A DNA stretch of 64,000 nucleotides, taken from the IMG/VR virus record IMGVR_UViG_3300021598_001639; one strand, 5' to 3'. This document shows positions 39,454 to 53,096 of the stretch, in pieces. Origin of the DNA: an uncultured virus (IMG/VR IMGVR_UViG_3300021598_001639) (Duplodnaviria; Heunggongvirae; Uroviricota; Caudoviricetes). Both the position numbers and the translations under genes were made by a program. The stretch's first letter is position 1, and the number at the start of each line of letters is the position of its first letter. Under the pieces are notes generated by a model that was not told where the DNA came from, made no database searches, and worked only from the letters and a program-made list of their open reading frames with translations.

Positions 39454-39657
39454 GGATTAGTATAAACCTCAAAAAATCCTGAGAAAACCCCCGAAGTGGT
39501 AATTAAAAAAGACCAAAATAGGGGGTTACATAAAAAAGTAAAGTAACATAGAGAGGACAAAGATATGCCAATTTGAAAAGTGTCACAAACAAGTTGACAA
39601 AGTAGATGAAGGATGCCATAATAGGTACATAAGCAAAGAAACACAGGAGTAACAAAA

Positions 39658-40050
39658 ATGACTTACACAAAGGCACTCGATAACGGGGATGTAACATGGT
39701 TCAGAATACTAGGGCAAGATTGGTTTGGTAAGACTTGTACACTGGACATAGAGTTAAACAAGTATGACATAGGAGAATTAGAAAACTTAGGATTAGGATT
39801 AGGAGAATCCGAAAAAGAAGCGAGAGAGGTGATAAACCAATGGTTGTTGGCCGCCGATATTTATGACCCACAAGGCTTTTGGAATCCTGATTTTAGTTCT
39901 GTAACGGATTATGATTGTCAGATTGAGCTAAGTGATGGAAGTTATTTTAGTCTAGATTGGGAAGACGATACAAACTATGCTAAGTATCGAGAAATAATGC
40001 TTAGTTACCAAGAGGCAATGTATGAAGCAATGTATGGTGATGAGGAATAG
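39658..40050 (+). CDS. Acidic early protein, family 1
   Basis: WFRILGQDWFGKT; own palindrome plus promoter. Confidence 0.78.
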   Translation: MTYTKALDNGDVTWFRILGQDWFGKTCTLDIELNKYDIGELENLGLGLGESEKEAREVINQWLLAADIYDPQGFWNPDFSSVTDYDCQIELSDGSYFSLDWEDDTNYAKYREIMLSYQEAMYEAMYGDEE

Positions 40051-40247
40051 TATAAACCTCAATAAATCCTGAGAACACCCCCGAAAAGGTAATTTAAAAA
40101 TACCAAAATAGGGGGGGGGGTTACATAAAAAAGGAAAGTAACGTAGAGAGAACAAAGATATGCCAATTTGAAAAGTGTCACAAACAAATTGACAAAGAAG
40201 TTAAAGAATGCCATAATAGGTACATAAGCAAAGAAACAGGAGCTAAA

Positions 40248-40556
40248 ATGTCACCGTCACATTCGAGAGAACCGTTAGTAAAGAGATTGTTACCATTAAT
40301 AGTAGAATGGGGTAACAAAACAGTAACAGATCAAGAATTTCTGAGTACCTGTGATAAGTTCTACAAAATTCTAGAGGGTCGCCAGTGTCCACATTGTGGA
40401 AGTTATGATGTGGTAATCAGGGCGTATAAAGAAACAGCTAAGGGAGAGAAATACCCAATGTTTCAATGTAAGGACTGCAAAAGAACCTTTTCAGGGGTCA
40501 AAAAATTTAATGGTAAATTCGGGGACAGTTTAGAATTTGACACACTTGACAAGTAA
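40248..40556 (+). CDS. Zinc-ribbon protein
   Basis: CPHCGS...FQCKDCKRTF (IS1 InsA-like ribbon). Confidence 0.7.
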   Translation: MSPSHSREPLVKRLLPLIVEWGNKTVTDQEFLSTCDKFYKILEGRQCPHCGSYDVVIRAYKETAKGEKYPMFQCKDCKRTFSGVKKFNGKFGDSLEFDTLDK

Positions 40557-40603
40557 TGCAGATTGTGACATAATAGAGACATTAGTAAGTTAGGAGTAAA
40601 TAA

Positions 40604-40939
40604 ATGGAGACTGAAATCACTAAAGTAATATTCCGTAAATGGAATAAGTCGGTGGACAAAGAACAAGGAATTATCGCAATATTCCCTGAAGATATTGGAA
40701 CAATGTCAAGTTATACTTGTAGTGCGTGGGAATGGGTAGGTGAACATGGTGCTTGTGACCCTGCGGAGGTAATCAAAAACTCAAAACCTGCTAAAGAGAT
40801 TGAATACCAAGAAATCAAAAATTACCTAGAAAATCATTACGGGTACAAGTTAGAGGTTAACCAAAGACTACGTTACAATGCCATAGAAATCAGACAACAA
40901 AAAATCCGGGAGATAGGTAATGGACACTCAAAAAACTAA
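40604..40939 (+). CDS. Early protein, family 2
   Basis: KVIFRKW...IIAIFPE...VGEHGAC. Confidence 0.75.
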   Translation: METEITKVIFRKWNKSVDKEQGIIAIFPEDIGTMSSYTCSAWEWVGEHGACDPAEVIKNSKPAKEIEYQEIKNYLENHYGYKLEVNQRLRYNAIEIRQQKIREIGNGHSKN

Positions 40940-41252
40940 AGTAATATTCCGTAAATGGAATAAAGATATAGACCCTAAACAAGGCATAATCGCAATATTC
41001 CCAGAGGAAATAGTATCACTGTCATTCTTAGATTGTGATTCATGGCAAAGAGTCGGAGAATATGGTGATATTAATTCTTGGAGTCCATGCAATCCTGAAG
41101 TAGTAATTAAGGGTTCAAAACTTGCTACTGAAAGTCAATATCTAGAGGACAAAAATTACCTAGAAAATCATTACGGGTATAATCTAAAGGTTCTGAAAAG
41201 AATACCCAGAACTGCCATAAAGGTAAGAAGCAAAAACATAGCCCAATTATAG
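40920..41252 (+). CDS. Early protein, family 2 (tandem paralogue)
   Basis: Shares KVIFRKWNK..QGIIAIFPE..KNYLENHYGY. Confidence 0.72.
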   Translation: MDTQKTKVIFRKWNKDIDPKQGIIAIFPEEIVSLSFLDCDSWQRVGEYGDINSWSPCNPEVVIKGSKLATESQYLEDKNYLENHYGYNLKVLKRIPRTAIKVRSKNIAQL

Positions 41253-41261
41253 GAGGGTATC

Positions 41262-41558
41262 ATGACACAGGACAACAAAAGAAATTACAGCTTTTTGGTT
41301 AAGGTAAGGGATAAGGACGGAAAACTTATTCCGTGCGACGAAACAACTGACAACACACGGATTAGCTTTGACTTAGCTGAGTTGACCGATAAGCAGGTAA
41401 TTTCTCACCTAAAATCAACGGGGAAAACATTAAAGGCTTGGATGCCAGATGATCGAAAAATCGGAATAGATGCTTATGTCTTTGATTCTATTTCAAGGAC
41501 TTATACGCTCCTTTTTTCGTGGTATGATGTGGATGTTGAGAAAGTTGTGAAGCATTAA
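41262..41558 (+). CDS. Hypothetical early protein
   Basis: RBS GGAGG, ORF. Confidence 0.65.
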   Translation: MTQDNKRNYSFLVKVRDKDGKLIPCDETTDNTRISFDLAELTDKQVISHLKSTGKTLKAWMPDDRKIGIDAYVFDSISRTYTLLFSWYDVDVEKVVKH

Positions 41559-41609
41559 TTATCAGGTATCAGTTATCAGTAAAAAACACCCATTAAGAGA
41601 GAAAAAAAC

Positions 41610-41837
41610 ATGACAGAAATTAAGGAATACACTAGAAGACTCACAATCAACCTAGATGTAACATTATCTGCAAAAAGCGAAAAAGAAGCCTTAGAATTGT
41701 TTGAAAATATCTACCCGCTTATCAGTTTAAGCTATATGGACATAGAGTTAAACAGGTATGACATAGAGGATGAGATACCTGAACTCATTGATTGGGATAC
41801 TCATATCGACACAGCCGATTGGGAGATAGAGGATTAA
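41610..41837 (+). CDS. Acidic early protein, family 3
   Basis: KEYT..L.I...V.AK..KEA...WEIED, paralogue of 42536. Confidence 0.65.
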   Translation: MTEIKEYTRRLTINLDVTLSAKSEKEALELFENIYPLISLSYMDIELNRYDIEDEIPELIDWDTHIDTADWEIED

Positions 41838-41885
41838 TGACCAGGTATCAGTTATCAGTAGCCATTATTTAGGAGTACCAAAAAG

Positions 41886-42089
41886 ATGAACTTTACCTTT
41901 TTTGATCTAGGCTATGCAGTGAAATTGACCAATGGGGAAACCGACATTTTACTACAGGGTGAGGATGCTGAAATCTTCTTAAAACAAGTCGATACCCTTA
42001 AGGAATTATGGGAAAATGGCAATCCTAACTATGAAGTTTTCCCTAGCTACGAGAAACATTTAGAAGTTTTGATCGAGCCTTATTTTTAA
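41886..42089 (+). CDS. Hypothetical early protein
   Basis: RBS AGGAG, ORF. Confidence 0.65.
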   Translation: MNFTFFDLGYAVKLTNGETDILLQGEDAEIFLKQVDTLKELWENGNPNYEVFPSYEKHLEVLIEPYF

Positions 42090-42141
42090 TCAGTTCCAGT
42101 TATCAGTTATCGGTAAACATTAACCATTTAGGAGTAGAAAA

Positions 42142-42465
42142 ATGTACCAAAAATTAAGCACCGATGAAGCTATTAAATTACTGAAATATGATCATAGTGC
42201 TGGTTGGTCATGGGAGGGTGCTACAGCTTTAATTGAGTACCTAGAAAACTTAGAGGATAGTGATAAGCCTATCAAATTTGATAGAGTCGCTTTGCGGTGT
42301 GATTTTTCAGAATATGATAGCGTCCTAGAGGCGGCGGAACATTATGATTTTATTCCCCCCGATGATGAGGATGAGGATGAGATAGAAGCGGAGGCACTTA
42401 AATATTTGGAGGATCGGACGACCGTAATTCAATTTGAGGGTGGTGTAATTATTAAGGACTTTTAA
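42142..42465 (+). CDS. Highly acidic early protein
   Basis: WSWEGATALIEYLE..FDRVALRCDFSEY..DDEDEDE. Confidence 0.72.
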   Translation: MYQKLSTDEAIKLLKYDHSAGWSWEGATALIEYLENLEDSDKPIKFDRVALRCDFSEYDSVLEAAEHYDFIPPDDEDEDEIEAEALKYLEDRTTVIQFEGGVIIKDF

Positions 42466-42468
42466 TTA

Positions 42469-42510
42469 ATCAGTTATCAGTTATCAGTTATCAGTTATCA
42501 GTTATCAGTA
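42469..42510 (+). repeat. STRR-type heptamer tandem repeat (TTATCAG)n
   Basis: About five to six tandem units; shorter runs at about 34751, 41559, 41846, 42099 and 42735. Confidence 0.85.
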
Positions 42511-42535
42511 ATTAACACATAATAGGAGTAAAAAA

Positions 42536-42727
42536 ATGAAGGAATATACAGGGAGTTTAAACCTCACAATTGAGGTCACGGTTAAGGCAAAAAACAGAAA
42601 AGAAGCGTCGTCAATGTTTGACGATTTATACACTCAAATCAGCATAGAAAATGACGGGAACCAATTGATAGAGATAGTTAGCGATAATCTGGGATTACTC
42701 GAAAATAGTTGGGATATAGAAGATTAA
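42536..42727 (+). CDS. Acidic early protein, family 3
   Basis: Paralogue of 41610. Confidence 0.65.
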   Translation: MKEYTGSLNLTIEVTVKAKNRKEASSMFDDLYTQISIENDGNQLIEIVSDNLGLLENSWDIED

Positions 42728-42776
42728 GTAGGAGTTATCAGTTATCAGTAAAAAAAGCCAAAAAGTCAAGAGTATA

Positions 42777-42846
42777 TGTGACAGTTTATAAATTGTCACA
42801 ACCTACCAAAAAACCCCTTGACAATCCAAGAGATAAATGACATAAT
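42777..42846 (+). promoter_or_regulatory. Representative early promoter: palindrome plus TTGACA-N17-CATAAT
   Basis: TGTGACAGTTTATAAATTGTCACA then TTGACA 42818 and CATAAT 42841; same module at about 39030, 39564, 40160, 45148, 46397, 47115 and through 48-52 kb. Confidence 0.85.
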
Positions 42847-42877
42847 AGGTACATAAGCAAAAAAACGGGAGTACATC

Positions 42878-43459
42878 ATGAACTATCAACCGCAATATCT
42901 TAAAAAATGGACAGAAGCACCAAATTATTTAGGGATGGATTTAACGGACTTCTATGTAGTAGCGGCTGAATCAGAGCAGAGTGATTCAGTAGATATGAGT
43001 AATTATCGAGTATGGCATCGATTATTTCCAGACTTAGAAGAGTTTAGTTTTGGGGGTTGCATGGAATTTAAAGCTTTAATGATTCATAAAGATTCTTTGC
43101 TATTAGAAGCAATAGATGAGAAAAAGAAAAGCTTGGAAGACTACTCAATACTAGATGAACAAGACTTGTCTGACTTAGAATATGAGCAGTGGTATGAGTA
43201 TTGGTCAAATTGGGGATATATTGAGTGTTTTAAGGAATTGTTAATAGCAATACCTGAGTTAAAAGATGATGAACGAGTAACGAGTCTGGATAATAAGTGT
43301 GTATTAACCAGTGATGAGTTAGGTGAGTTAATTGAGGATTTTGCTAACGATTTTGCGAATCTAGACGATTTTAGTATTAGTTTTAATTTTAGCGAGTCTG
43401 AGAAGGAATTGCTACTGAAAAGACTAGAGGACATTTTAAGCCGAACTGAGGAAAACTAA
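42878..43459 (+). CDS. Highly acidic early protein
   Basis: 193 aa, D/E-rich; terminator hairpin about 43467-43495. Confidence 0.72.
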   Translation: MNYQPQYLKKWTEAPNYLGMDLTDFYVVAAESEQSDSVDMSNYRVWHRLFPDLEEFSFGGCMEFKALMIHKDSLLLEAIDEKKKSLEDYSILDEQDLSDLEYEQWYEYWSNWGYIECFKELLIAIPELKDDERVTSLDNKCVLTSDELGELIEDFANDFANLDDFSISFNFSESEKELLLKRLEDILSRTEEN

Positions 43460-43734
43460 CATAAACAAAAGGGTGAGTTAATGTACTCACCTTTTCTTGT
43501 CTATACCAAACAAGGCAGAAATATGTAGGAGTTGTGTAATAAAGAATGAATAATGCAGGTATGTGTATCAGGTTTGTATATAAGCAAAACTAATAACAAA
43601 GATAAGAAAAAATTATATAAGGTAAAGTTATAGCAAGGGCGGATAGGGATAAGAAAATAAAATACGAAAAGTATTGACACAGGACTGAAAAGATAGCATA
43701 ATGGGTACATAAGCAAACAAAGAGGAAAAAGACA

Positions 43735-44166
43735 ATGTATAGCACAAAATGGACAGAAATACACTATCTGGGAAAACGAAAAAAAGACGGAAAACTAATA
43801 TATATAGCCGCCCCGACATGGGATTGTGATTGGTACTGGTCTTTCGGGTATTTAAGGGCAAAAGGGGAACATTACCACTTGAGCAACTATGGGAATATCA
43901 ACTGGCAAGAGGCTCTAGAAAGAGACTACACTTTAAACGTAAAATTGAGAGGGGATAACCTATGGAAGTTTTACGAACTAGCGAAAACAGCTTATGGATT
44001 AAAGGAAGTAGCGGAAATATTAGGTAGAGGTGGTTCTCATGTAACGGTAAACCCGTTAGCAGAGGTAATCAAAAATAAAGCAGAGGTTGACAGAATCAAT
44101 CAGATAGTATTACCTCAAATATTTGATGCAATAAATGAGATGTTCGAGGTAAGAAAAACACCTTGA
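43735..44166 (+). CDS. Conserved-looking phage protein
   Basis: IYIAAPTWDCDWYWSFGYL...ILGRGGSH. Confidence 0.72.
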   Translation: MYSTKWTEIHYLGKRKKDGKLIYIAAPTWDCDWYWSFGYLRAKGEHYHLSNYGNINWQEALERDYTLNVKLRGDNLWKFYELAKTAYGLKEVAEILGRGGSHVTVNPLAEVIKNKAEVDRINQIVLPQIFDAINEMFEVRKTP

Positions 44167-44218
44167 CAAAGAAATAGGGTAGCCTAAAAAAAGTTACCCT
44201 ATTTTTAGATGTAAATTG

Positions 44219-44989
44219 TTAGTTAGCTACCTTACCATATTTAGGTAAATGACTACGATGTGTTTCAAAGAAACCGGGCAAAACAGCGAAGGAGGTATCT
44301 TTAAACTTAGCGTAAGAACCTTGATGAAGTAATTGAAAAGACTGGTCAATATAATTTTTAGATTGACCGTATTTACCTTCAATCCCAGAATCATCAAGGT
44401 CTGAAACAAGCCACTCGATGGTTTCCTGTCTAAGGTCATCCAAGTCAGGGGGAATAGAAAGTCCTAACATTTTAGCGATAGTGCCGTTAGTTCTAGCGTG
44501 AATTGTCTCGTCCCTGCTAATCTCTGCGGAAACCATAGCTAACTGAGTACCACCTAAACGGCGGTATAAAGTTAAGACCGGAAAAAAGATAGATTGTTCG
44601 GCGACCCAAGTAACTAAAACGGGGTGATATTTCTCTCCCATTTTTAACCATTTAGAGACTAAAGAACGAGATTCAGACTCAATTTGTAGTTTATCAGTAA
44701 GATTAGCTAAAGAGATATTTGAATAGGCATAATTTAACTGAGAGTCATGTTTTTTTTCGTCTTTAAAATTAGAGGCTAATAATAAAATACCGTAATCAGA
44801 TAACCATTTTCTCTCTCGACTAGCACACTCTTTAATCCATTGACCAACGGGTAACTCTAAGTGTCGAGCCTCTAATGCTTTTTGGATAGTTTTTTCCGCA
44901 CCCCGAACACAGTGACCGTTTTGAATAGGCATAACTGCCCAATCTCGTTTAGCGTTTAATAGACGTTGAAAAATTAATTGATCAGACAT
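44219..44989 (-). CDS. nrdB: Ribonucleotide reductase small (beta) subunit, cyanophage type
   Basis: RHLELPVG, NFKDEKKHD, AEQSIFF, EISRDETIH diiron ligands; MPGFFE-like tail (LPGFFETHRSHLPKY). Confidence 0.85.
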   Translation of the reverse strand: MSDQLIFQRLLNAKRDWAVMPIQNGHCVRGAEKTIQKALEARHLELPVGQWIKECASRERKWLSDYGILLLASNFKDEKKHDSQLNYAYSNISLANLTDKLQIESESRSLVSKWLKMGEKYHPVLVTWVAEQSIFFPVLTLYRRLGGTQLAMVSAEISRDETIHARTNGTIAKMLGLSIPPDLDDLRQETIEWLVSDLDDSGIEGKYGQSKNYIDQSFQLLHQGSYAKFKDTSFAVLPGFFETHRSHLPKYGKVAN

Positions 44990-45248
44990 AAAGTTTTTAC
45001 CAGTAAAAAATTTTTCCTTGTATTAAAGGATTGAGTGAACCCCTTGAAGGAAAGATTACCCCTGCATTATAACACAATAAAAAATTTTTAAAAATAAAAA
45101 AATCATGGTAGTATATGCACTAAAAAGCCAAAAAGTCAAGCGGTTATGTGCCAGTTTATAAACTGTCCCAAAACACCAAAAACCCCTTGACATTACAAGA
45201 GATAAGTTACATAATAGAGACATAAACAAAAAACAAGAGTACCCAATT

Positions 45249-45677
45249 ATGAAGTTGTACCAAAAGATTGCAAGAGTTTTAAGTCAAAAAAACAAGTCGC
45301 TAAATGTGATAGAGAAAGAGTTAACTTTGTTGAAAGAGTTATTGCCTAATGGTAATGTAATCGGATTACAACGTCATAACTTATCAACTGTGAGTTGCAT
45401 TATATCCCTAAAATCAACTCACAAAAGAATAGTGATAGACACAGCGTATTGGCATCCAATCATAAGACAATGGACAGAGCATCAAGTAGTAATAACACCT
45501 AGTTTTGAGGACGAAATAAACATCCGAATAACTGGTAAAAATGAGGACAACGTTAAGGACTACTTACATGATATTTTTAGTGAGGCATTAATGAAAGAGT
45601 ATGTAGTTTTTAAAAAGGGCTGGGATGTCAAAGATTCATCAGAAATAGAATCTGAACTAGAATCTGAACTAGATTAA
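45249..45677 (+). CDS. Hypothetical early protein
   Basis: WTEHQVVITPSF..INIRITGKN..VKDYL. Confidence 0.7.
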   Translation: MKLYQKIARVLSQKNKSLNVIEKELTLLKELLPNGNVIGLQRHNLSTVSCIISLKSTHKRIVIDTAYWHPIIRQWTEHQVVITPSFEDEINIRITGKNEDNVKDYLHDIFSEALMKEYVVFKKGWDVKDSSEIESELESELD

Positions 45678-45962
45678 CAGACCAAAAAAGCTAAAGCAGT
45701 GGTAAGAATCACTGCTTTAATCTAAAATAACAATTGCAGGTGTGTGCATGAGGTTAGCACATAATAAAAACTTATTACAAGGATAATCAAAAGTTATATT
45801 AGGTAATCTTATGACGATAGGACAAAATTATAAGCAAAAATAATATTAGATAAACTTATGACAATACCTAAAACAGATAAAAAAAGACAAAACTAAAAGT
45901 ATTGACATTTTTTGAAAAAGATGACATACTATAAACATAAACGAAAACCGGAGTTACCAACC

Positions 45963-46376
45963 ATGACTACACTAGACACAATGATTTTAGATTATATCGC
46001 AATTGGGGCATATTGGGCATTTAACGCTACCGTTGTATTCTTTACCGTAATGATGATAATATCGGGTGTTTTGCACGCATTTTGGGGCATTTTAGAGGGG
46101 GTGGATAGCCGAATATTTTATCCTCAAAACTTGCATAATATGGACACGACCGATACACAAATTGATACCCAAATTCCTAATTTAGAAAATCTAGAGGAAG
46201 ACTTAAATTTAGTGTCTAAAATAGAGTCAATATCTCAAGTGGCGATTAAACAGGAACTGGTAGAATCAGAAGTGGTATCAATCAGACAATTAAAAGTGAT
46301 GGCCAGAGAATTAAAAATTAAAGGTTATGGAAGTATGACAAAACAACAATTGATAGAAAAAATTCAACAGAGTTGA
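45963..46376 (+). CDS. Membrane protein with C-terminal Rho-N (HEH) domain
   Basis: N-terminal TM; SIRQLKVMARELKIKGYGSMTKQQLIEKI. Confidence 0.72.
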   Translation: MTTLDTMILDYIAIGAYWAFNATVVFFTVMMIISGVLHAFWGILEGVDSRIFYPQNLHNMDTTDTQIDTQIPNLENLEEDLNLVSKIESISQVAIKQELVESEVVSIRQLKVMARELKIKGYGSMTKQQLIEKIQQS

Positions 46377-46498
46377 GAAAAAAGTCAAGGGGCTATGTGC
46401 CAGTTTATAAACTGTCCTAAAACACCAAAAAACCCCTTGACAATTCAATAGAACAGTGGCATAATAGACACATAAGCAAAAAATAGGAGTCACCAATT

Positions 46499-46846
46499 AT
46501 GTTTGTAAGATTAAGCTATCACAATATCGACGACCTCTTTATTTTGTTTGATGCTGGGGTTATTGACTTAAAAACTAAGTCTCAGGTATCCCTATCAGAA
46601 ATAGAAGACTATGATAATTTTGGATGGTTAGAGTTAACGAGTAAAAATTTAGAGGCAATTTGTGAATATTGTGCAGAGTTAGGTATAGAGTCTAATGGTT
46701 CATTAGGTGATTTTCGTTACTGGTATTCTGCGGACATGAACTACCATTTAGAGTTAAAAAGTGACCAGTCTGAAAACTTAGAGGTTAAAATTGGAGAAAT
46801 CAACTTAAAGCTAGAGGGGTTAAAATTAATTAAAAACGAAAGCTAA
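46499..46846 (+). CDS. Early protein, family 4
   Basis: LFDAGVIDL.TK.QVSL..IEDYDNFGWLELT shared with 47218. Confidence 0.72.
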   Translation: MFVRLSYHNIDDLFILFDAGVIDLKTKSQVSLSEIEDYDNFGWLELTSKNLEAICEYCAELGIESNGSLGDFRYWYSADMNYHLELKSDQSENLEVKIGEINLKLEGLKLIKNES

Positions 46847-47217
46847 CAAAAAAAAAGGTTGAGAGCAATAGCTCAACCTTTTAATTTGTGTCTAATCGAG
46901 TGCAAGGGTAAATTATCATGTTTGTACCATTTAAAGAATGCGAAAAAAATTGTTTTCACAGTTTAACGGCTTACATAGAATAGCATTGATAGAACTGCTG
47001 ATTCTTATGTTTCTCTGGGGAGTAATCGAGCAGTATAACCATTTCAAAAATGGTGGTACATTAAGAGATAGTGCAAGGGTACAAATTCAGGAAAAATAAG
47101 AGAGCCAGAGGGATTGTGACAATTAAAAAACTGTCACAATCTAATTAAATCTCCTTGACAATTCAATAGAACAGTGGCATAATAGAGAAATAAGCCAAAA
47201 AGTACAGGGGTTAGACA

Positions 47218-47613
47218 ATGATTAAAGTAAGATTAAGCTATACACGACGACTTTATTTGTTTGATGCGGGGGTCATTGACTTAAACACTAAGTGTCAGGT
47301 ATCACTAGATGACATAGAAGACTATGATAATTTTGGATGGTTAGAGTTGACGGCGGATAAATTAGAAAATGTTTGTGAGTATTGTTCAAATTTAGGAATA
47401 GAATCTAATGTTACATTAAGTGATTTTCCTTACTGGGAACTTTCTTACTGGTACTCCTACGACCAAAATTACCGTTTAGATATAAAAAGTGATTCAGGTG
47501 AGGACTTAGGTTTAGTTAATAAAATATTTGAGATAAACTTAGGACTTTGGAAATCCAAGCTAATCAGAGAAAATAAAAATCTAAAACGGATAAATAGTTC
47601 GCTCAATATTTAA
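47218..47613 (+). CDS. Early protein, family 4
   Basis: Paralogue of 46499. Confidence 0.72.
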   Translation: MIKVRLSYTRRLYLFDAGVIDLNTKCQVSLDDIEDYDNFGWLELTADKLENVCEYCSNLGIESNVTLSDFPYWELSYWYSYDQNYRLDIKSDSGEDLGLVNKIFEINLGLWKSKLIRENKNLKRINSSLNI

Positions 47614-47755
47614 GTGAGTGTTTATTTATAAAGCTACAATGAAAAAGAAATCGTGCGGTAAGAAGATTAAAAAGGTTACTCCAAAGCCGGTTAAACCTTC
47701 TAAATAGTCAAGATAAGGACGGTGTATCCCGTCCTATTTTATTAAAATAAAAGTT

Positions 47756-47956
47756 ATGAATCTAATAAAAAATTGGTTAGTAATAATGTCTTCAGTAGGC
47801 TTATTAGGGGTTAGCGTATTGGCTATTCAAAACCCTGACAAATTCGGGCGAAACGTTGTAGAAATAACAGCGGTGCTAATAACGTCAGTTATCACCTTAG
47901 CCAAACAAAGTGATGAACATCCTAAACAAAATGATGAACCGCCTAAGAAACCTTAG
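47756..47956 (+). CDS. Small two-TM protein (holin-like or superinfection-exclusion-like)
   Basis: Two hydrophobic segments, charged tail. Confidence 0.5.
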   Translation: MNLIKNWLVIMSSVGLLGVSVLAIQNPDKFGRNVVEITAVLITSVITLAKQSDEHPKQNDEPPKKP

Positions 47957-48173
47957 AGCCTATTCCAAAAGTGCTAGTTTAAGAGGTATCACACCTGCAA
48001 AAAAGGTCAAAATATCAAGTCCAATTATGCCAGTTTATTAATTGTCACATCTATCACAAAAAAGTCAAAATGTCAAGTAAAATTATGCCAGTTTAGAAAG
48101 TGTCACATATAGTATAGAAAGTTCTAAAAAAGGTGACATAATAGTAATATAAAGAAAAACACAGGAGTTCCAA

Positions 48174-48518
48174 ATGACTAACACGGTAAACGGTGAACTA
48201 ACTTGGTTCAGAATATTAGGGCAAGATTGGAATGGTAAGACTCGTACAATGGAGATAGAGTTAGGCAAGTATGACGTAGGGGAATTAGAAAACTTAGGAT
48301 TAGGATTAGGAGAATCCGAAAAAGAAGCGAGAGAGGTGATAAATCAATGGTTGAGGGCTATAGGTATTTATGAACCTCATGGCTTTTGGAGTGTTGATTT
48401 TAGTTCAGTAACGGATTATGATTGTCAGATTGAGTTAAGTGATGGACACTATTTAAGTGTAAATTGGGAGGACGATAAAAACTATGCTAAGTATCAAGAG
48501 ATACTAAGACTTATCTAA
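48174..48518 (+). CDS. Acidic early protein, family 1
   Basis: Close paralogue of 39658. Confidence 0.78.
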   Translation: MTNTVNGELTWFRILGQDWNGKTRTMEIELGKYDVGELENLGLGLGESEKEAREVINQWLRAIGIYEPHGFWSVDFSSVTDYDCQIELSDGHYLSVNWEDDKNYAKYQEILRLI

Positions 48519-48744
48519 GCTAAATGTCAAGTCCAGATGTGCCAGTTTATAAATTGGCACATCTACCACAAAAAAGTAAAAATGTCAATACCGATTGTGC
48601 CAGTTTATTAATTGTCACATCTACCACAAAAAAGTAAAAATGTCAAGTCAAATTATGCCAGTTTAGAAAGTGTCACAAAGGGTATAGACGTTTCTAAAAA
48701 AAGATGGCATAATAGTAATATAAAGAAAAACACAGGAGTTTCAA

Positions 48745-48888
48745 ATGATTAACCCACTCAGAATCAAATTATCTGCTAAACATATTGTGGCTAAACGGGG
48801 TAAAGAAATAGTAGTGATCTATAATTTTATGCCCACAAATAATTGGAAAAAAAAAGCTAAATGGTTAAAAAAACTATTGTTTAGCTAA
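48745..48888 (+). CDS. Small basic cassette protein (47 aa)
   Basis: Standard cassette promoter and RBS ACAGGAGTTTCAA-ATG; MINPLRIKLSAKHIVAKRGK... Confidence 0.6.
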   Translation: MINPLRIKLSAKHIVAKRGKEIVVIYNFMPTNNWKKKAKWLKKLLFS

Positions 48889-49286
48889 ATGTCTATAGGT
48901 AATGTGCCAGTTTATTAATTGGCACATCTATCACAAAAGGTAAAAATGTCAATAGGTAATGTGCCAGTTTATAAATTGGCACAATAGGACTTAACAAAGA
49001 GTAAAGTCAATGCAGGTGGAAATGTGCCAGTTCATAAAGTGTCACAGCTACAACAAAAAAGTCAAACTGTCAATAGGAAATGTGCCAGTTTAGAAAGTGT
49101 CACAGCTATCATAAAAAGGTCAAAATGTCAATAGGTAATGTGCCAGTTTAGTAATTGGCACATCTACCACAAAAAGTAAAAATGTCAATAGGTAATGTGC
49201 CAGTTTAGAAAGTGTCACATAGGGTATAGACATTTCTAAAAAAAGATGACATAATAGTAATATAAAGAAAAACACAGGAGTTCCAA

Positions 49287-49535
49287 ATGATTTACGACAT
49301 CCCCCTGTTTGAAGTTGAATCCTCTGTCTTAATGTTTGTAGGTTATGAGCCAATTAGCGAAACATTAAGAATAGTATTTAAATCTGGAAGTGAGTACAAA
49401 TATACAGGAGTACCAATTCAGGTGTATCAAAATCTCTGTAATGCAGAATCTATAGGACGAGAGTTCAATCGTACTATTCGTAACAAATACGATTGTACTC
49501 TAGTACAAGAGTTAAAAGTAGCAAGAAAAGCGTAA
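49287..49535 (+). CDS. KTSC-domain protein
   Basis: VESSVLMFVGYE...LRIVFKSGSEYKYTGVP..VYQNL..AESIGREFNRTIR. Confidence 0.88.
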   Translation: MIYDIPLFEVESSVLMFVGYEPISETLRIVFKSGSEYKYTGVPIQVYQNLCNAESIGREFNRTIRNKYDCTLVQELKVARKA

Positions 49536-49819
49536 ATGTCAATAGGTAATGTGCCAGTTTATTAATTGGCACAGCTACCACAAAAAAGTAAAAATGTCAA
49601 GTCCAATTATGCCAGTTTAGAAAGTGTCACAATAGGACTTGACAGAGAGTAAAGTCAATGCAGGTGAAAATGTACCAGTTCATAAAGTGTCATAGCTACC
49701 ACAAAAAAGTCAAAATGTCAAGTCCAATTATGCCAGTTTAGAAAGTGTCACATACGGTATAGACAAATCTAAAAAAAGATGACATTATAGTTATATAGAG
49801 AAAAACACAGGAGTTCCAT

Positions 49820-49975
49820 ATGAAAACTATCGACCTAATAATTTCAGTATTATTTTCAGTATTAATTATCGGACTTTTATTTATGGCTACGATACCTAAC
49901 CAGAAAAAAGTAGAATGTGAAGTTGAAAATCAAAGTCCTGCAACGGTACGCAAAGAATACTTATACATGAGATAA
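49820..49975 (+). CDS. Small single-TM cassette protein (51 aa)
   Basis: Cassette RBS plus MKTIDLIISVLFSVLIIGLLFMATIP... Confidence 0.6.
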   Translation: MKTIDLIISVLFSVLIIGLLFMATIPNQKKVECEVENQSPATVRKEYLYMR

Positions 49976-50149
49976 AAAAGTCAAAATGTCAATAGGTAAT
50001 GTGCCAGTTTAGTAATTGGCACAGCTACAACAAAAAAGTCAAAATGTCAATAGGAAATGTGCCAGTTTAGAAAGTGTCACATATGGCATAGACAAATCTA
50101 AAAAAAGATGACATAATAGTAATATAAAGAAAAACAAAGGAGTTCCACA

Positions 50150-50490
50150 ATTGAGAACACACCCCCTGGAGAAACCATTTCCGACATCTTGAAAGAGAGA
50201 GGAATACCCTTACGAATATTTGCTAATCGGATGGAAATGTCAAGAAAGGAAGCCTTTCGACTGCTGGCAAGTGAAACTGAGATTACAGGTCGTATTGCTT
50301 GCAAATTGCAGTATGCTTTCGGCTTACCTACTGCTCATTTTTGGAAAGAGCGTGAAAGACTTTACCGAGAATCTCTAGCAAATCAAAACAATGTAATGCA
50401 GAATCTAGGGAACAATAGTTCAATCGTACTATCCGAAACAGATACGACTGTACAGTAGTACAAGTGCTAAAAGTAACAAAAAAAGCGTAA
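50150..50490 (+). pseudogene. HigA-like XRE antitoxin fragment fused to the 3' end of a KTSC gene copy; lacks an ATG start
   Basis: PPGETISDILKERG...EIT..IA.KL..AFG.P.AHFW.ERERLYRESL; 50392-50490 is DNA-homologous to 49437-49535. Confidence 0.72.
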
Positions 50491-50716
50491 ATGTCAAGTC
50501 CAGATGTGCCAGTTTATTAATTGGCACAATAGGACTTAACAAAAAGCAAAGTTTATGCAGGAAGTAATGAACCAGTTTAAAAAGAGTCACATCTACCACA
50601 AAAAGGTCAAAATGTCAAGTCAAATTATGCCAGTTTAGAAAGTGTCACATACGGTATAGACAATTCTAAAAGAAGATGATATAATAGTAATATAAAGAAA
50701 AACAAAGGAGTTCCGC

Positions 50717-51472
50717 ATGAGTTACGACACCTTCCTGATTGAAGTTAAATCCTCTGACTTATTAGCTGTCGGTTATGAACAGCTATTAAAAAACATGGCT
50801 AGTAATTTTCAAGATAAACTACCGGTAGTTATCTCAATTGGTGCTAAAGATGCGGGAAAAACCTTTAATTATATTCAGCTATCTCGCCTACAGTCTTGGG
50901 GAAATTTTTTAAATAAAGTTGATCCTAAAAATCAAGAAAATTCCGGAGAAAATCTGGGTTTAATATTTCCTTTACTCCAATCACAAAATTTAAATGATAA
51001 GTCCAAAAATATTCTTGAACAAGCACGGCTAAATGTAAATAATACACTCAATCATAATTGTCAATTTTCCATATCGGATTTTAAAGACAGAATAACGCAG
51101 TCTCTATCTAATCAAGATTGGAACGAGGTAGATTGGGCAAAATTTTGGGTCAAAGAATTTTCGAGAGTTTTAGGGTATAATCAGGAAAATTATCAACTAA
51201 ATAAACTGCATGAATACCTTAAACAAAAAAACTCGAAGATTATATTTTTAATTGATGGATTAGAAGATGCTTTTCCTAATGTCGCCAATGATAACGATAA
51301 CCTTCAACGAAAAGCCTTGAAAGCTTTGATCGATCATTTACCGAATAAATTAACAGAAATTAAGCAATCTAATCTAGGATTGATTGTCTTTCTGCGTCGA
51401 GATTTCTTGAGATATACAATCACACAAAACTCAGCACAATTTGAAAACTTATATCGTGAATACCGTTTTTAG
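50717..51472 (+). CDS. Chimera: KTSC N-terminus fused to an internal fragment of a cyanobacterial P-loop NTPase
   Basis: MSYDTFLIEVKSSDLLAVGYE resembles the 49287 start; then SIGAKDAGKT (Walker A-like) and IIFLIDGLED (Walker B). Confidence 0.72.
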   Translation: MSYDTFLIEVKSSDLLAVGYEQLLKNMASNFQDKLPVVISIGAKDAGKTFNYIQLSRLQSWGNFLNKVDPKNQENSGENLGLIFPLLQSQNLNDKSKNILEQARLNVNNTLNHNCQFSISDFKDRITQSLSNQDWNEVDWAKFWVKEFSRVLGYNQENYQLNKLHEYLKQKNSKIIFLIDGLEDAFPNVANDNDNLQRKALKALIDHLPNKLTEIKQSNLGLIVFLRRDFLRYTITQNSAQFENLYREYRF

Positions 51473-51827
51473 TGAAGACGGCAAACTACTAAAGAGTCAA
51501 TAGGAAATGTGCCAGTTTAGTAATTGGCACATCTACCACAAAAAGTAAAAATGTCAATAGGTAATGTGCCAGTTTATAAAGTGTCACATCTACCACAAAA
51601 AAGTAAAAATGTCAATAGGAAATGTGCCAGTTCATAAAGTGTCACATCTACCACAAAAAAGTAAAAATGTCAATAGGAAATGTGCCAGTTCATAAAGTGT
51701 CACAGCTACAACAAAAAAGTAAAAATGTCAATAGGTAATGTGCCAGTTTAGAAAGTGTCACATATGGCATAGACAAATCTAAAAAAAGATGACATAATAG
51801 TAATATAAAGAAAAACAAAGGAGTTCC

Positions 51828-51993
51828 TCGGATGGAAATGTCAAGAAAGGAAGCCTTTCGACTGCTGGCAAGTGAAACCGAGATTACTGATAGTATTGCT
51901 TGCAAATTGGAGAATGCTTTCGGTTTACCTAATGCTCATTTTTGGATATTGAGTGAAGAGCTTTACCGAGAATCTCTAGCAAGAAAAGCGTAA
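51828..51993 (+). pseudogene. Second, 5'-truncated HigA-like fragment in a cassette
   Basis: DNA nearly identical to 50228-50380, ending in the KTSC terminus GCAAGAAAAGCGTAA. Confidence 0.72.
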
Positions 51994-52216
51994 AATGTCA
52001 ATAGGAAATGTGCCAGTTTATAAATTGGCACACCTACCATAAAAAGGTAAAAATGTCAAGTCCCAATGTGCCAGTTTAAAAAGTGTCACAATAGGACTTG
52101 ACAAAAAGTAAAATTTATGCAGGTGATACCCCTACCCCTCTTTTAGGCTAAAAAAGAAAGTGCCTCCTTTTTGTCCTAAATTTTTTTTTTGAAAATGAAA
52201 AATCAATTTAGGCGTA

Positions 52217-53096
52217 AAACTGTACTACTTAACCAAAATCAATAAAACTCAATCATATCAAGGGTTTTAGCGTTTTTACTTTAAAAAACACCATTTTAAA
52301 ATCAATAAAGCCCAGTCATAGTATAGCTTTGACCTGTTTGTACTATGTAGTAGGGGGGATAACTTTATTTTTTTTTTATCTACTACGCCTTTAATCATCG
52401 CAGTTTAGGTACAAAAAAAACATAAACTATATAGAATGAGCAAATTAAAGCATTCGGAAGTCCTAATAAGGTGAGTCTGTTTTTTTTTTTTTTGCTTTAA
52501 CAGGGCGGGTTTTAGACTTTTCCGTATAGTGGCTTTTTTCTTTTAGCATTGTTCCACTTTAAGGTGGACATACACTACAGACAATAATAAACAGCCTTTT
52601 ACCACACTTCAGAGCGGGTCGTGATACTTTTACTATTAAACGAATTTGTAATGGTCTAAGGGGTTAAAAATGGGTAAATGAGCAAATGTGGGCTAAATAT
52701 TTAAAATATGTATTTAATTTTTGGTAGGTTGATTTTTGAATACCCTAGAATTAAAGTAATCTAGTATCCTATCCCCCATTCTATTTTTTTTTTTCGCTAT
52801 GTATATAGCATAGCATGGGTATAAACAAAATGTCAAGGGGTAGTGGAAAAATATTTTTTTTGGGGGGTGGGGTAAGGGAGAGAGGCAAAAAAGTATGAGA
52901 GTTTTTAAACTGCGATGATTAAAAGTGTAGTAGATAAAAAAAATAAAGTTATCCCCCCTACTACATAGTACAAACAGGTCTAAGCTATGCTATGACTGAA
53001 TTTTATTGATTTTTAAATGGTGTTTTTTAAAGTCAAAAATGTTAAAACCCTTAATAAGATTGAGTTTTATTGATTTTTAGAGGGGTAGTACAGTTT
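52217..53096. repeat. Long inverted-repeat element C (non-coding; interior is an inverted paralogue of element A)
   Basis: Arms about 52217-52407 and 52906-53096; minus-strand TTGACA(52836)-N18-TATGCT. Confidence 0.9.

Follow-up and report, generated by a model that had tools for sequence, protein, structure and literature searches.

The window analysed here, a stretch of 64,000 nucleotides, is from a Mic1-like Microcystis siphophage and contains a locus in which short direct repeats alternate with promoters and small genes. What kind of element is this, and how does its gene content change? A preliminary description saw in it a repeat-scaffolded array of single-gene expression cassettes, accordion- or integron-like, that captures and shuffles host gene fragments. 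The cassette array itself is supported by the present analysis and the interpretation as a whole only in part. With a probability of about 0.7, the array represents a hyperplastic, immediate-early stretch at the end of a Mic1-like phage's early region, built of composite regulatory cassettes of the PeSL kind and shuffled by recombination.

Repeat units, promoter modules and hairpins

The array spans 48010-52125 and holds 27 direct units of 57-58 bp and seven near-identical promoter/RBS modules, each with one payload (Table 1), confirming the layout first noted. Tandem Repeats Finder returned arrays of period 57-58 at 47998-48108, 48522-48677, 48887-49220, 49552-49752 and 51496-51763, and the unit core [G/A]CCAGTT[T/C]A occurs 27 times from 48029 to 52070, in all cases on the + strand. 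A stricter pattern, GCCAGTTYAKWAAKTGKCA with at most one mismatch, matched 27 times in the window, 26 times in the array and once at 42780; the one array unit that it missed, at 50571, has diverged too far to be matched. No match to this pattern is expected by chance, and each of 100 shuffles gave none. The module sequence ATAAAGAAAAACAMAGGAGTT is present seven times (at 48149, 48720, 49262, 49795, 50124, 50692 and 51805; 0 expected by chance). Upstream of each module are TAGACA-like and CATAAT-like hexamers spaced by N17, with a TG before the -10 (a near-consensus extended -10); the promoter of module 1 is a weaker variant. The array is located at the border of convergent gene blocks and adjoins a gene-poor region of ~1 kb with a large inverted repeat.

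Two classes of unit are present: a strong-hairpin class follows the stop codon of all seven payloads, and the promoter is always on a unit of the non-hairpin class. In the window, 7/7 units directly after a payload stop are of the hairpin class, compared to 2/20 of the other units (Fisher p 4e-5). In five pooled genomes, whose counts are not independent as two of them are near-identical, 34/41 hairpin-class units head their run and 0/34 promoter-bearing units are of this class. Folding energies of the hairpin class are -18.6 to -19.1 kcal/mol (z -4.9 to -5.6; for the unit at 48541, -18.6 kcal/mol and z -5.6), while non-hairpin units fold like shuffled sequence (z +0.27 and -0.92). The hairpins have no U tract after them on the + strand and are therefore not canonical intrinsic terminators; the extended palindromes are terminator-like for the - strand only, and the terminal one (-27.5 kcal/mol, z -5.9) has a U-rich tail after it on that strand. 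The stem-loop after the stop may serve as an RNA 3'-end hairpin, an attenuator or an insulator.

Conservation within the unit is highest in a ~25-bp imperfect palindrome, ATGTGCCAGTTTATAAAGTGTCACA, which is retained even in units unable to form the hairpin; at 45150 and 46399 its inner core, CAGTTTATAAACTG, is perfectly palindromic. Stem covariation was absent, the observed measures being no higher than those of shuffled data, and the central C-G or A-U pair is kept in 27/83 units. Therefore, the conserved palindrome could be a protein-binding site.

Table 1. Positions in the window of the array components and of the early region upstream
Feature	Position	Strand	Remarks
Upstream early region	39534..47183	+	more single-gene units; TTGACA-N17-CATAAT promoters, mostly preceded by a TGTG[A/C]CA..TGTCACA palindrome
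Units 1-2, module 1	48010..48173	+	TAGAAA-N16-CATAAT, GGAG
Payload A	48174..48518	+	114-aa acidic ORFan
Units 3-5, module 2	48522..48744	+	first unit (48541) of hairpin class
Payload B	48745..48888	+	47-aa basic ORF
Units 6-11, module 3	48887..49286	+	
Payload K	49287..49535	+	intact 82-aa KTSC-domain protein; PF13619, 68.8 bits, E 3.2e-19
Units 12-15, module 4	49534..49819	+	one extended palindrome, ~49592-49645
Payload T	49820..49975	+	51-aa single-TM ORF
Units 16-17, module 5	49984..50150	+	
Payload H5	50151..50490	+	HigA-like HTH gene, ATG lost; then out-of-frame KTSC 3' remnant 50393-50490
Units 18-20, module 6	50489..50716	+	extended palindrome, ~50490-50545
Chimeric payload	50717..51472	+	251 aa; KTSC codons 1-22 fused in frame to internal host P-loop ATPase fragment
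Host-derived part of chimera	50785..51457	+	610/673 nt identical (91%), ungapped
Units 21-25, module 7	51492..51831	+	
Payload H7	51832..51993	+	53-aa remnant of second HigA-like HTH gene, ends in last KTSC codons
Units 26-27	51993..52125	+	array closed by terminal extended palindrome

Payloads and their origin

The seven payloads are those originally listed (acidic, basic, KTSC, TM, HTH plus KTSC 3' end, KTSC 5' end plus ATPase, and truncated HTH plus KTSC stop), and junction mapping placed their boundaries directly past the RBS or within KTSC sequence, as had been proposed. The capture of host fragments held for one of the seven cassettes, that with the ATPase; the others show either distant host relatives (the HTH and KTSC payloads) or 0 matches in 17 Microcystis genomes (payloads A, B and T). 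Payload A has no Pfam, PHROG or PADLOC match; it is paralogous to an early gene of the phage itself, at 39658-40050 (79% identity over 106 aa), and has 34 homologues with 69-93% identity to the query, several of them on contigs of ~80-97 kb. The Mic1 copies of payload B are 74-83% identical to it. Payload T weakly matches phrog_5799, and its Mic1 counterparts, gp69 and gp70, are described as immediate-early genes in the accessible text of PMC11237433. Host matches to payload K have only 29-31% identity and lie within 575-aa frames in 12/17 genomes.

Both HTH cassettes are truncated and, among the related contigs compared, this is so in the window genome only. In H5 the ATG was removed by a 16-bp deletion flanked by CACAAT, which leaves the frame 50189-50458; an intact 106-aa ORF is present in 6/6 window-lineage relatives, and the undeleted form is found as loose ends in sequencing runs X1, X3 and X15. 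In H7 the first 38 codons were lost through a 121-bp 5' deletion, and the 3' end meets the KTSC tail at TAGCAAGAAAAGCGTAA. The related contig G001 has H7 as an intact 91-aa ORF, and the N-terminal part is kept in 5/5 window-lineage relatives with contigs that extend to H7. Over residues 1-86 or 1-88, the HTH payloads share 46-48% identity with a host HigA-like domain; relatives at this level occur in 12/17 Microcystis genomes, where the match heads a 387-408-aa frame in 9/12, and matches at E <= 0.001 occur in 14/17. The single host copy examined combines a HigA-family HTH with an M78 peptidase domain. The phage HTH proteins score 30.2 and 28.9 bits, under the HigA model cut-off of 47.7. Since both cassettes are damaged in the window genome, the proposal of a strongly expressed antitoxin decoy is weakened here.

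On sequence comparison the ATPase fragment of the chimera is the only clearly host-derived payload. Chimera residues 24-249 have 86% identity to residues 468-693 of a 913-aa Microcystis aeruginosa ATPase of the KGGVGR-motif/Sll1717 type, and the fragment retains Walker A- and B-like motifs. In simulations its open frame survives in 3.3% of cases if all 63 differences are neutral and in 17% if half are; dN/dS against the host gene is 0.40. The fragment is 100% identical in all window-lineage contigs where it occurs (complete in five, in one for the first 19 residues only), so that there is no within-lineage signal of selection. The donor gene is accessory (3/17 Microcystis genomes) and is always preceded by a conserved partner ORF of ~140 aa, Desulfobacterota included; its neighbours in Microcystis are Gp49-like, PIN and D12-methylase genes, and its N-terminal part weakly matches the candidate-defence model PDC-M28B.

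Variation among relatives

The array is not invariant. Nine related contigs differ in unit number and in cassette order and content, with three content types and many unit-number variants. Linkers hold from 1 to 7 units among near-identical genomes; the relatives, Mic1 excepted, are metagenome contigs, and these differences could partly reflect collapse during short-read assembly. Collinear blocks of G001 and the window are 99.8-100% identical, yet the two differ at four places within the 4-kb array. G001 does not have 47993-48161 (the stretch of units 1-2 and module 1, which is found in unitigs of runs X1 and X3) or 49972-50056. Alternative continuations appear as loose ends in two DNA runs at 48181, 50387/50389 and 51711. 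Between payload A and the start of payload N, IMG/VR contig 31784_3461 agrees with the window in cassette order and in unit counts.

Duplication driven by the repeats, as first suggested, would fit Mic1, where internal duplications of 964 bp (89%), 729 bp (90.5%) and 583 bp (94%) cover whole cassettes; it does not account for most of the differences between the window and G001, which are mainly short-microhomology deletions (0-6 bp) and not repeat-against-repeat exchanges. The homologous locus of Mic1 matches that of the window in pieces, at ~84% nucleotide identity, and has gp72- and gp73-type payloads in place of A, H and N.

Independent assemblies and unitigs reproduce the layout. The cassette order is shared by seven contigs of separate assemblies, a homologous array is present in the Mic1 isolate genome, and mismatch-free unitigs from two DNA runs of different studies (47733-48109 and 47880-48109) pass from unique sequence into the repeats. 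Some joints in RNA-library contigs that go back to earlier sequence may be artefacts, since the sequence common to both sides (22-32 nt) is about one assembly word.

Early expression, cassette shuffling and the alternatives

Upstream of the array, the early promoters at 39594, 40189, 40546, 42818, 45187, 46437 and 47155 have the palindrome in front of them, at a variable distance from the -35 box (0 to about 20 nt); those at 43674 and 45902 have none upstream. By RNA-seq, Mic1 gp69-gp73, located in the homologous array, form the E1 cluster, which peaks at 0.5 h and then drops quickly, according to the accessible text of PMC11237433. Payloads A, B, K, H and N are covered by contigs of an environmental RNA library, which indicates presence in that library only.

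In the favoured reading of PeSL-kind cassettes, every small accessory gene would be a separate expression unit. Directly 3' of the preceding stop codon there would stand a 58-bp unit with a strong palindrome of 13-bp stem, then 0-5 additional units, then a non-hairpin unit joined to a putative host-type promoter (TAGACA, N17, TG-n-CATAAT), an A-rich leader of ~24 nt and a GGAG ribosome site. Judging from Mic1 RNA-seq, host RNA polymerase would be expected to use these promoters at once on infection. The modules, being near-identical and direct, are substrates for unequal or ectopic homologous recombination, which could duplicate, delete and reorder cassettes; payloads would also be overwritten through illegitimate (microhomology) joins at module edges. 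In this lineage, three overwriting events may have affected KTSC cassettes, one involving 673 nt of the host accessory ATPase gene and two a HigA-like HTH gene. The most likely role of the payloads is that of accessories for host takeover or anti-defence.

It is possible, if tentatively so, that the 58-bp units are operators for a dimeric DNA-binding regulator, an early phage protein or a host factor, that turns the immediate-early promoters on or off; the array would multiply its sites and could also titrate it. This is compatible with cassette shuffling, and the palindrome, as the best-conserved part of the unit, retained where no hairpin can form, perfect in its core at two sites and placed upstream of the -35 at no fewer than seven early promoters beyond the array, is what would be expected of it; the rapid fall of Mic1 E1 transcripts also calls for some shut-off mechanism. 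However, no candidate binding protein was found, the spacing to the -35 varies, the perfect-palindrome class is located after stop codons rather than at promoters, and homogenisation of the repeats by recombination could alone explain the conservation. It is improbable that the units are iterons or serve replication initiation, partition or packaging in some other way, with small genes merely lying between them: the direct, AT-rich repeats, their conserved core and A-tracts, and the position of the array at a gene-block border beside the gene-poor region with the inverted repeat fit such a role, but the units are spread cassette by cassette in register with stop codons and promoters, vary in number per linker among near-identical genomes, and have related palindromes ahead of other early promoters across 12 kb, with no GC-skew turning point at the array and no initiator or partition gene recognised nearby.

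An unlikely alternative in terms of function is that the array serves as a dedicated platform for taking up pieces of host immunity genes, which would be expressed at once as decoys or dominant-negative inhibitors; the KTSC::ATPase fragment would poison the two-gene ATPase module of the host, and the host HigA-like HTH-M78 protein would be disturbed by the HTH domain. The in-frame, gap-free ATPase fragment with its retained motifs, its rarely surviving open frame and dN/dS, the accessory donor with its constant partner, its neighbours and its PDC-M28B match, and the widespread host HTH relatives point this way. Set against them, a recent host fragment is found in one payload and not in A, B, T or K, the donor ATPase is no established defence system, both HTH cassettes are truncated, the phage HTH proteins score below the HigA cut-off, and the identical ATPase fragments carry no signal of selection. 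Misassembly of a simpler repeat region is least credible of all. Short-read assemblers do collapse or misjoin 58-bp repeats, the relatives differ mainly in unit number and some joints share about one assembly word; yet one order recurs in separate assemblies and the Mic1 isolate, exact unitigs from two studies bridge unique sequence and repeats, and the junctions of unique sequence share too little for graph artefacts.

With regard to known systems, integrons have a single Pc promoter, and attC sites at the 3' ends of their cassettes are recombined by an integrase. The array resembles them as a row of single-gene cassettes of variable content, but every cassette is equipped with a promoter and RBS of its own, the repeats do not resemble attC sites, and the junctions suggest homologous and microhomology-based recombination. 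In line with the first description, no integrase was seen: the scan of 61 window ORFs of >=100 aa gave neither an IntI-type nor any other tyrosine or serine recombinase. The integron-like architecture was not borne out; the array matches the known PeSL type. In the "genomic accordions" of poxviruses, the copy number of accessory genes grows and shrinks via recombination. The three copies each of the KTSC, TM and 47-aa genes in Mic1 recall this, but there is no evidence in the array of selection-driven amplification of a single gene; its cassettes are heterogeneous and its repeats are regulatory modules. The host-takeover module of the Bacillus phage SPO1 has host-type promoters and, to our knowledge, no tandem-repeat-unit or hairpin organisation. 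The array shares with it a cluster of many small early genes under host-type promoters, but the SPO1 module sits in the terminal redundancy. Its many small early genes act in host shut-off, and a shuffling role of its promoters was not found in the accessible text (PMC6873191).

The layout of hairpin, promoter and RBS appears, by analogy, to be already known from the PeSL cassettes of T4-type phages. As far as the accessible text of Arbiol et al. 2010 (PMC2839356) and Comeau et al. 2014 (PMC4122927) goes, PeSLs (promoter-early stem-loops) are mobile regulatory cassettes that combine a strong sigma70-like early promoter, a stem-loop and a Shine-Dalgarno sequence, occur in hyperplastic regions and mediate modular shuffling. 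The array shares the repeated composite, its position between small non-essential ORFans of a hyperplastic region, and its presence at the seams of insertion, deletion, replacement and reordering between close relatives. The differences are that the carrier is a cyanobacterial siphophage and not a T4-type myovirus, with no sequence similarity; that the stem-loop is an AT-rich 13-bp palindrome in a tandemly multiplied 58-bp unit (1-7 per linker), placed after the upstream stop codon and not in or beside the promoter hexamers, and without a sense-strand U tract; and that all the cassettes lie within one array of 4-6 kb.

For Mic1, whose array is the homologous locus, the repeated promoter motifs have already been published, as has the finding that the matching genes are expressed immediate-early (Yang et al. 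2020, PMC7156551; PMC11237433, 2024). In the accessible parts of these papers the repeats are regarded as putative multiple promoters, and the 58-bp unit array, the rule of a hairpin after the stop, the shuffling of cassettes among relatives and the chimeric payloads are absent. The genome paper gives a promoter motif in 10 copies (66,031-71,646) and a second motif in 8 copies (67,047-69,344) (PMC7156551, accessible text); the second is read here as the outer arm of the extended palindrome and not as a promoter.

Layout and presumed early expression of the array

The only phage record matched by the window is that of Mic1 (MN013189.1), with 83.6% identity over 39% of the query, and the nearest available record is the IMG/VR fragment G001, which is 33 kb long. 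The array consists of 27 direct repeat units, for which Tandem Repeats Finder (TRF) also returned periods of 57-58. The core motif of the unit occurs 27 times within the array, each time on the same strand, and a degenerate 19-nt pattern matched 26 units while giving 0 matches in 100 shuffles. The promoter/RBS module ATAAAGAAAAACAMAGGAGTT is present in 7 copies where 0 are expected. TAGACA-like and CATAAT-like hexamers separated by N16-17, with TG before the -10, lie upstream of all seven modules, and these predicted promoters agree by sequence match with 9-11 of the 12 consensus positions; module 1 is a weaker version. GGAG is found 7-10 nt 5' of the start in 7/7 modules, and cassette 5 has lost its ATG. 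Each cassette has a promoter and RBS of its own.

The repeats and modules are as the preliminary description had them (about 27 units and seven payloads), and the payload identities given there were also borne out: an acidic 114-aa protein (A), a basic 47-aa protein (B), an intact 82-aa KTSC protein (K), a 51-aa single-TM protein (T), an HTH with a KTSC remnant (H5), a 251-aa KTSC::ATPase chimera (N) and a 53-aa HTH remnant (H7). Payload K scored 68.8 bits against PF13619 (cut-off 25) and covered profile positions 1-58 of 58. Across the whole window ARAGORN detected no tRNA, and Rfam at gathering thresholds no RNA family.

Promoter repeats have been published before in Mic1. Its genome paper reports a promoter-containing motif in 10 copies at 66,031-71,646 and a second motif in 8 copies at 67,047-69,344, and calls for transcriptomics (PMC7156551). 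According to the transcriptome paper, gp49-gp73 form the early class, within which gp49 and gp69-gp73 make up an E1 cluster peaking at 0.5 h (PMC11237433). Since the Mic1 E1 genes are located in an array homologous to that of the window, we infer by analogy that the strong immediate-early expression shown for Mic1 extends to the window array. Payloads A, B, K, H and N are represented in contigs from a single environmental RNA library, which indicates presence in that library only.

Positions of features in the window and of related host loci
Feature	Location	Strand	Description
TnpB-like ORF	4107-5231		OrfB_IS605, Cas12f1-like TNB and HTH_OrfB_IS605 domains
Early region	39594-47183		One-gene units with TTGACA-N17-CATAAT promoters and a common leader (..ACATAAGCAAA..GGAG); palindrome related to the array unit upstream of 7/9 promoters
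Paralogue of payload A	39658-40050		Phage gene, 79% identity to A
Deletion in G001	41587-41703		117 bp; flanked by A-runs
Deletion in G001	45234-45396		163 bp; flanked by A-runs; takes away the start of the gene at 45249
Rho_N gene	45912-46376		Early gene with a C-terminal Rho_N domain (PF07498, E 1e-9)
Tandem paralogues	46499-46846 and 47218-47613		Early region; both gp72/gp66-like
Array	48010-52125	+	27 direct repeat units of 57-58 bp each
Alternative continuations	48181, 50387/50389, 51711		In contigs of two DNA runs
Antisense promoter-like sites	48981-49010 and 49629-49658	-	TTGACT, 18 nt, TATTGT (consensus match only, 9/12 positions); within variant units, directed back into the preceding payloads
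Inverted repeat	52235-52407 / 52906-53077		Arms total ~170 nt; longest pair 114 nt at 89% complementarity; ~500 bp flanked
Loose ends at inverted repeat	52235, 52255, 52278		Variant junctions in sequencing runs X1 and X3
HTH-M78 gene	L014 1140-2664		Microcystis; 390-aa protein with a HigA-family HTH and an M78 (ImmA/IrrE-like) peptidase domain
Two-gene ATPase module	L023, L024 (Microcystis); L008, L010, L012		~140-aa all-helical ORF overlapping a 913-931-aa ATPase (KGGVGR-type and Sll1717-type P-loop domains)

Hairpin units and the palindrome

Folding of the units gave two classes, which are told apart by the right arm. With the right arm TTGGCACA a stem of ~13 bp is formed (-18.6 to -19.1 kcal/mol, z -4.9 to -5.6); units with the right arm GTGTCACA have no folding advantage over shuffled sequence. 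In the window, the unit directly 3' of a payload stop belongs to the hairpin class in 7/7 cases, compared with 2/20 of the other units (Fisher p 4e-5). Over five genomes, two of them near-identical and with a diverged unit at 50571 missed by the script, 34/41 hairpin-class units head their run and 0/34 promoter-fused units are of this class. Since hairpin units are placed after stops and non-hairpin units are fused to promoters, the basic order of a linker is stop codon, hairpin unit, promoter unit, RBS, start codon; the minimal form with two units is found in Mic1. In some units the palindrome is extended to ~50 nt. The window has four of these, and on the - strand three of them have folding energies of -22.7 to -27.5 kcal/mol with a U-rich tract immediately after, so that by sequence they resemble terminators of antisense transcripts. 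On the + strand a U tail is absent after every hairpin stem.

The main rival reading of the unit is that its palindrome may be a site for protein binding. A covariation test of the 13-bp stem over 83 distinct units gave no support for the stem, the observed values being no higher than those of shuffled sequence. Furthermore, the best-conserved part of the unit is the ~25-bp palindrome itself, which is kept even in units that are unable to fold, and related palindromes lie outside the array upstream of at least 7 more early promoters, at 39.6-47.2 kb. A CRP-, NtcA- or sigma54-type site was rejected, as the spacing is unfit when judged by eye against the consensus sequences. The second Mic1 motif (TTGACA...ATGCAGG) was rejected as a promoter since the window copies have the wrong spacing to any -10-like hexamer; the motif appears instead to be the outer arm of a long palindrome. 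The array was also considered as a replication origin and rejected, there being no skew turning point.

Variation among relatives and likeness to known cassette systems

An exact-match scan of IMG/VR gave 10 contigs, and the window, Mic1 and ten loci from these contigs were mapped; two of the loci consist of 2-3 units with no cassette. Three content types and many unit-number variants are seen in 9 related contigs. The order of the window (A, B, K, T, H, KTSC remnant, N, H', the last corresponding to H7) is common to six contigs, with payload identity at about 100%; these vary in the number of units per linker, and the units and promoter before A are present in some and absent from others. One of the six, 8113_1711, also holds an additional block in which promoter-A (96%) is followed by seven units and promoter-K (95%). 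Multiple copies of B, K, T, gp72- and gp73-type payloads, in varied orders, are found in Mic1 and contig 7094_6; the arrangement of contig 8108_1085 is of a third kind. Mic1 contains internal duplications that measure 964, 729 and 583 bp and are 89-94% identical. 

In collinear blocks G001 and the window share 99.8-100% identity, but G001 departs from the window at four sites in the array and two upstream. Most of the difference junctions have 0-6 bp of microhomology, and several joins fall in payload 5' ends, outside the repeats. Contigs from two DNA runs, each of a separate study, reproduced the left junction of the window exactly and also contained alternative continuations. The array thus varies among relatives; an invariant array would have refuted the preliminary reading. 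Part of the unit-number variation could be short-read assembly collapse. The raw reads of run X21 contained only 4 matching reads, too few to be informative. A tandem KTSC duplication was suggested by 'goes back' joints in a contig of the RNA library, and these were discounted because the two sides share 22-32 letters. A literature search on hypervariability in the Microcystis phage Mic1 found no paper. Mic1 is under study as a bloom-control agent and as an engineering chassis, and 4-6 kb of it are marked here as dispensable, unstable and strongly expressed; the region is a warning for engineering and also a possible insertion site.

In architecture and in evolutionary behaviour the array matches the promoter-early stem-loops (PeSLs), the regulatory cassettes of T4-type myoviruses (PMC2839356, PMC4122927). 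Like these it has a repeated sigma70-like early promoter close to the host consensus (predicted, 7/7) and a stable intergenic stem-loop, one per payload stop (7/7); its motif ends in a Shine-Dalgarno sequence (GGAG) and an ORFan start, cassette 5 being without ATG. The hyperplasticity of the PeSLs is also shared, with indels, replacements and reordering between close relatives and several of the joins in payload 5' ends. However, the position of the stem-loop is unlike that of the five subclasses set out in PMC2839356, and the PeSL family was described from T4-type myoviruses, from which the window phage differs. Its nearest relative, Mic1, is a 'long-tailed cyanophage' in the title of its genome paper (PMC7156551) and a 'cyanosiphophage' in that of its transcriptome paper (PMC11237433). 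Since Mic1 is a siphophage and not T4-type, the array is an analogue of the PeSLs and not a homologue. The PeSL principle, in which regulatory repeats are both expression sockets and recombination seams, is extended to a freshwater cyanobacterial siphophage, in a distinct implementation where a palindromic unit is multiplied in tandem. What is new at the locus is this tandem palindromic unit with its placement rule, the population-level plasticity and the in-frame host ATPase fragment.

The array had also been likened to an integron, and this part of the earlier interpretation did not stand. Integron cassettes are promoterless, end in attC and depend on one common promoter, whereas here there is a promoter and RBS per cassette; a scan of the 61 window ORFs that reach 100 aa gave no match at E <= 1e-4 to Phage_integrase or any other recombinase family. 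The TnpB-like ORF, of the OrfB_IS605 type, is the only transposition-type match among the 61.

Origin of the payloads

Over its residues 24-249 the 251-aa N ORF shares 86% identity with residues 468-693 of a 913-aa protein from Microcystis aeruginosa, annotated at NCBI as KGGVGR-motif variant AAA ATPase; the DNA is identical at 610/673 nt, ungapped, and codons 1-22 of N are KTSC-derived. This is a dated, sequence-resolved case of an internal piece of a host accessory gene pasted in frame into a putative immediate-early cassette. The dN/dS of N, phage versus host, is 0.40, and that of the ATPase between hosts is >1, from few changes. In neutral simulations the N frame remained open in 3.3% of cases when all 63 changes were applied, and in 17% when half were.

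The host ATPase gene is present in 3/17 Microcystis genomes and adjoins Gp49-like, PIN and D12-methylase genes, amid housekeeping genes. A conserved small ORF lies upstream of it at 5/5 loci with enough flank, and is 50% identical between Microcystis and Electrothrix. The two-gene module is found between differing housekeeping genes in Microcystis, Electrothrix and a Syntrophobacteraceae MAG; it has a patchy distribution and no annotation, and a literature search on KGGVGR found nothing. We flag this module, found in Microcystis and in other bacteria, as a candidate for a phage-conflict system. The predicted structure of the small partner (5-sequence alignment) had a mean pLDDT of 53.6, too low for a fold search, and a HEPN-like reading of it gained no support. 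Complex prediction for the chimera and host ATPase residues 440-913 gave a score of 0.00 in a run without controls, which counts neither for nor against a complex.

Relatives carry intact H forms of 106 and 91 aa, which share 46-48% identity with the HTH domain at the N-terminus of a host protein of 387-408 aa (HTH_3 and Peptidase_M78), and the first seven residues are the same; this match occurs in 12/17 Microcystis genomes, or 14/17 at E <= 0.001. Against TIGR02607 (HigA, cut-off 47.7 bits) the intact G001 forms scored 30.2 and 28.9 bits, below the cut-off, and a 390-aa host relative reached it with 51.3. The phage H proteins match phrog_1381, 'plasmid antitoxin with HTH domain' (E 1e-7), and JGI gives the names HigA or VapI to database relatives 91-102 aa long. 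No toxin-like ORF, and so no cognate HigB-type toxin gene, was found beside H5 or H7 in the window or G001. The N-terminal damage to both H cassettes is seen only in the window, and at the 3' end each cassette runs into KTSC sequence through a short homology. At locus L014 a 122-aa ORF overlaps the start of the HTH-M78 gene; it has no library match, and its reading as HigB-like was rejected for want of support from any library.

Payload K is only 29-31% identical to a 575-aa host frame, and A, which has a paralogue among the phage's own genes, matched 0/17 Microcystis host genomes, as did B and T each; the repeat unit is absent from all 17. The claim that the payloads derive from the host thus holds for one cassette, the recent capture N; the HTH family is related only distantly to a host domain, and the other payloads are genes of the phage. 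KTSC cassettes were the recipient three times.

In a capture-and-express reading the KTSC cassettes would be landing pads for pieces of host immunity genes, taken up in frame, and would supply an immediate-early promoter, an RBS and an N-terminal tag. The KTSC::ATPase chimera would be dominant-negative against a putative two-gene Microcystis defence module (~140-aa partner and 913-aa KGGVGR/Sll1717-type ATPase), the HTH payloads would act as decoys for the HigA-like HTH-M78 protein of the host, and the tandem palindromic units would increase the recombination rate and insulate every trial gene. The decoy and dominant-negative roles are putative, and we consider it unlikely, with a probability of about 0.15, that this reading holds.

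The large inverted repeat lies in a gene-poor kilobase that separates the array from the convergent genes of the - strand; it may mark a segment able to invert or move, or may block transcription.
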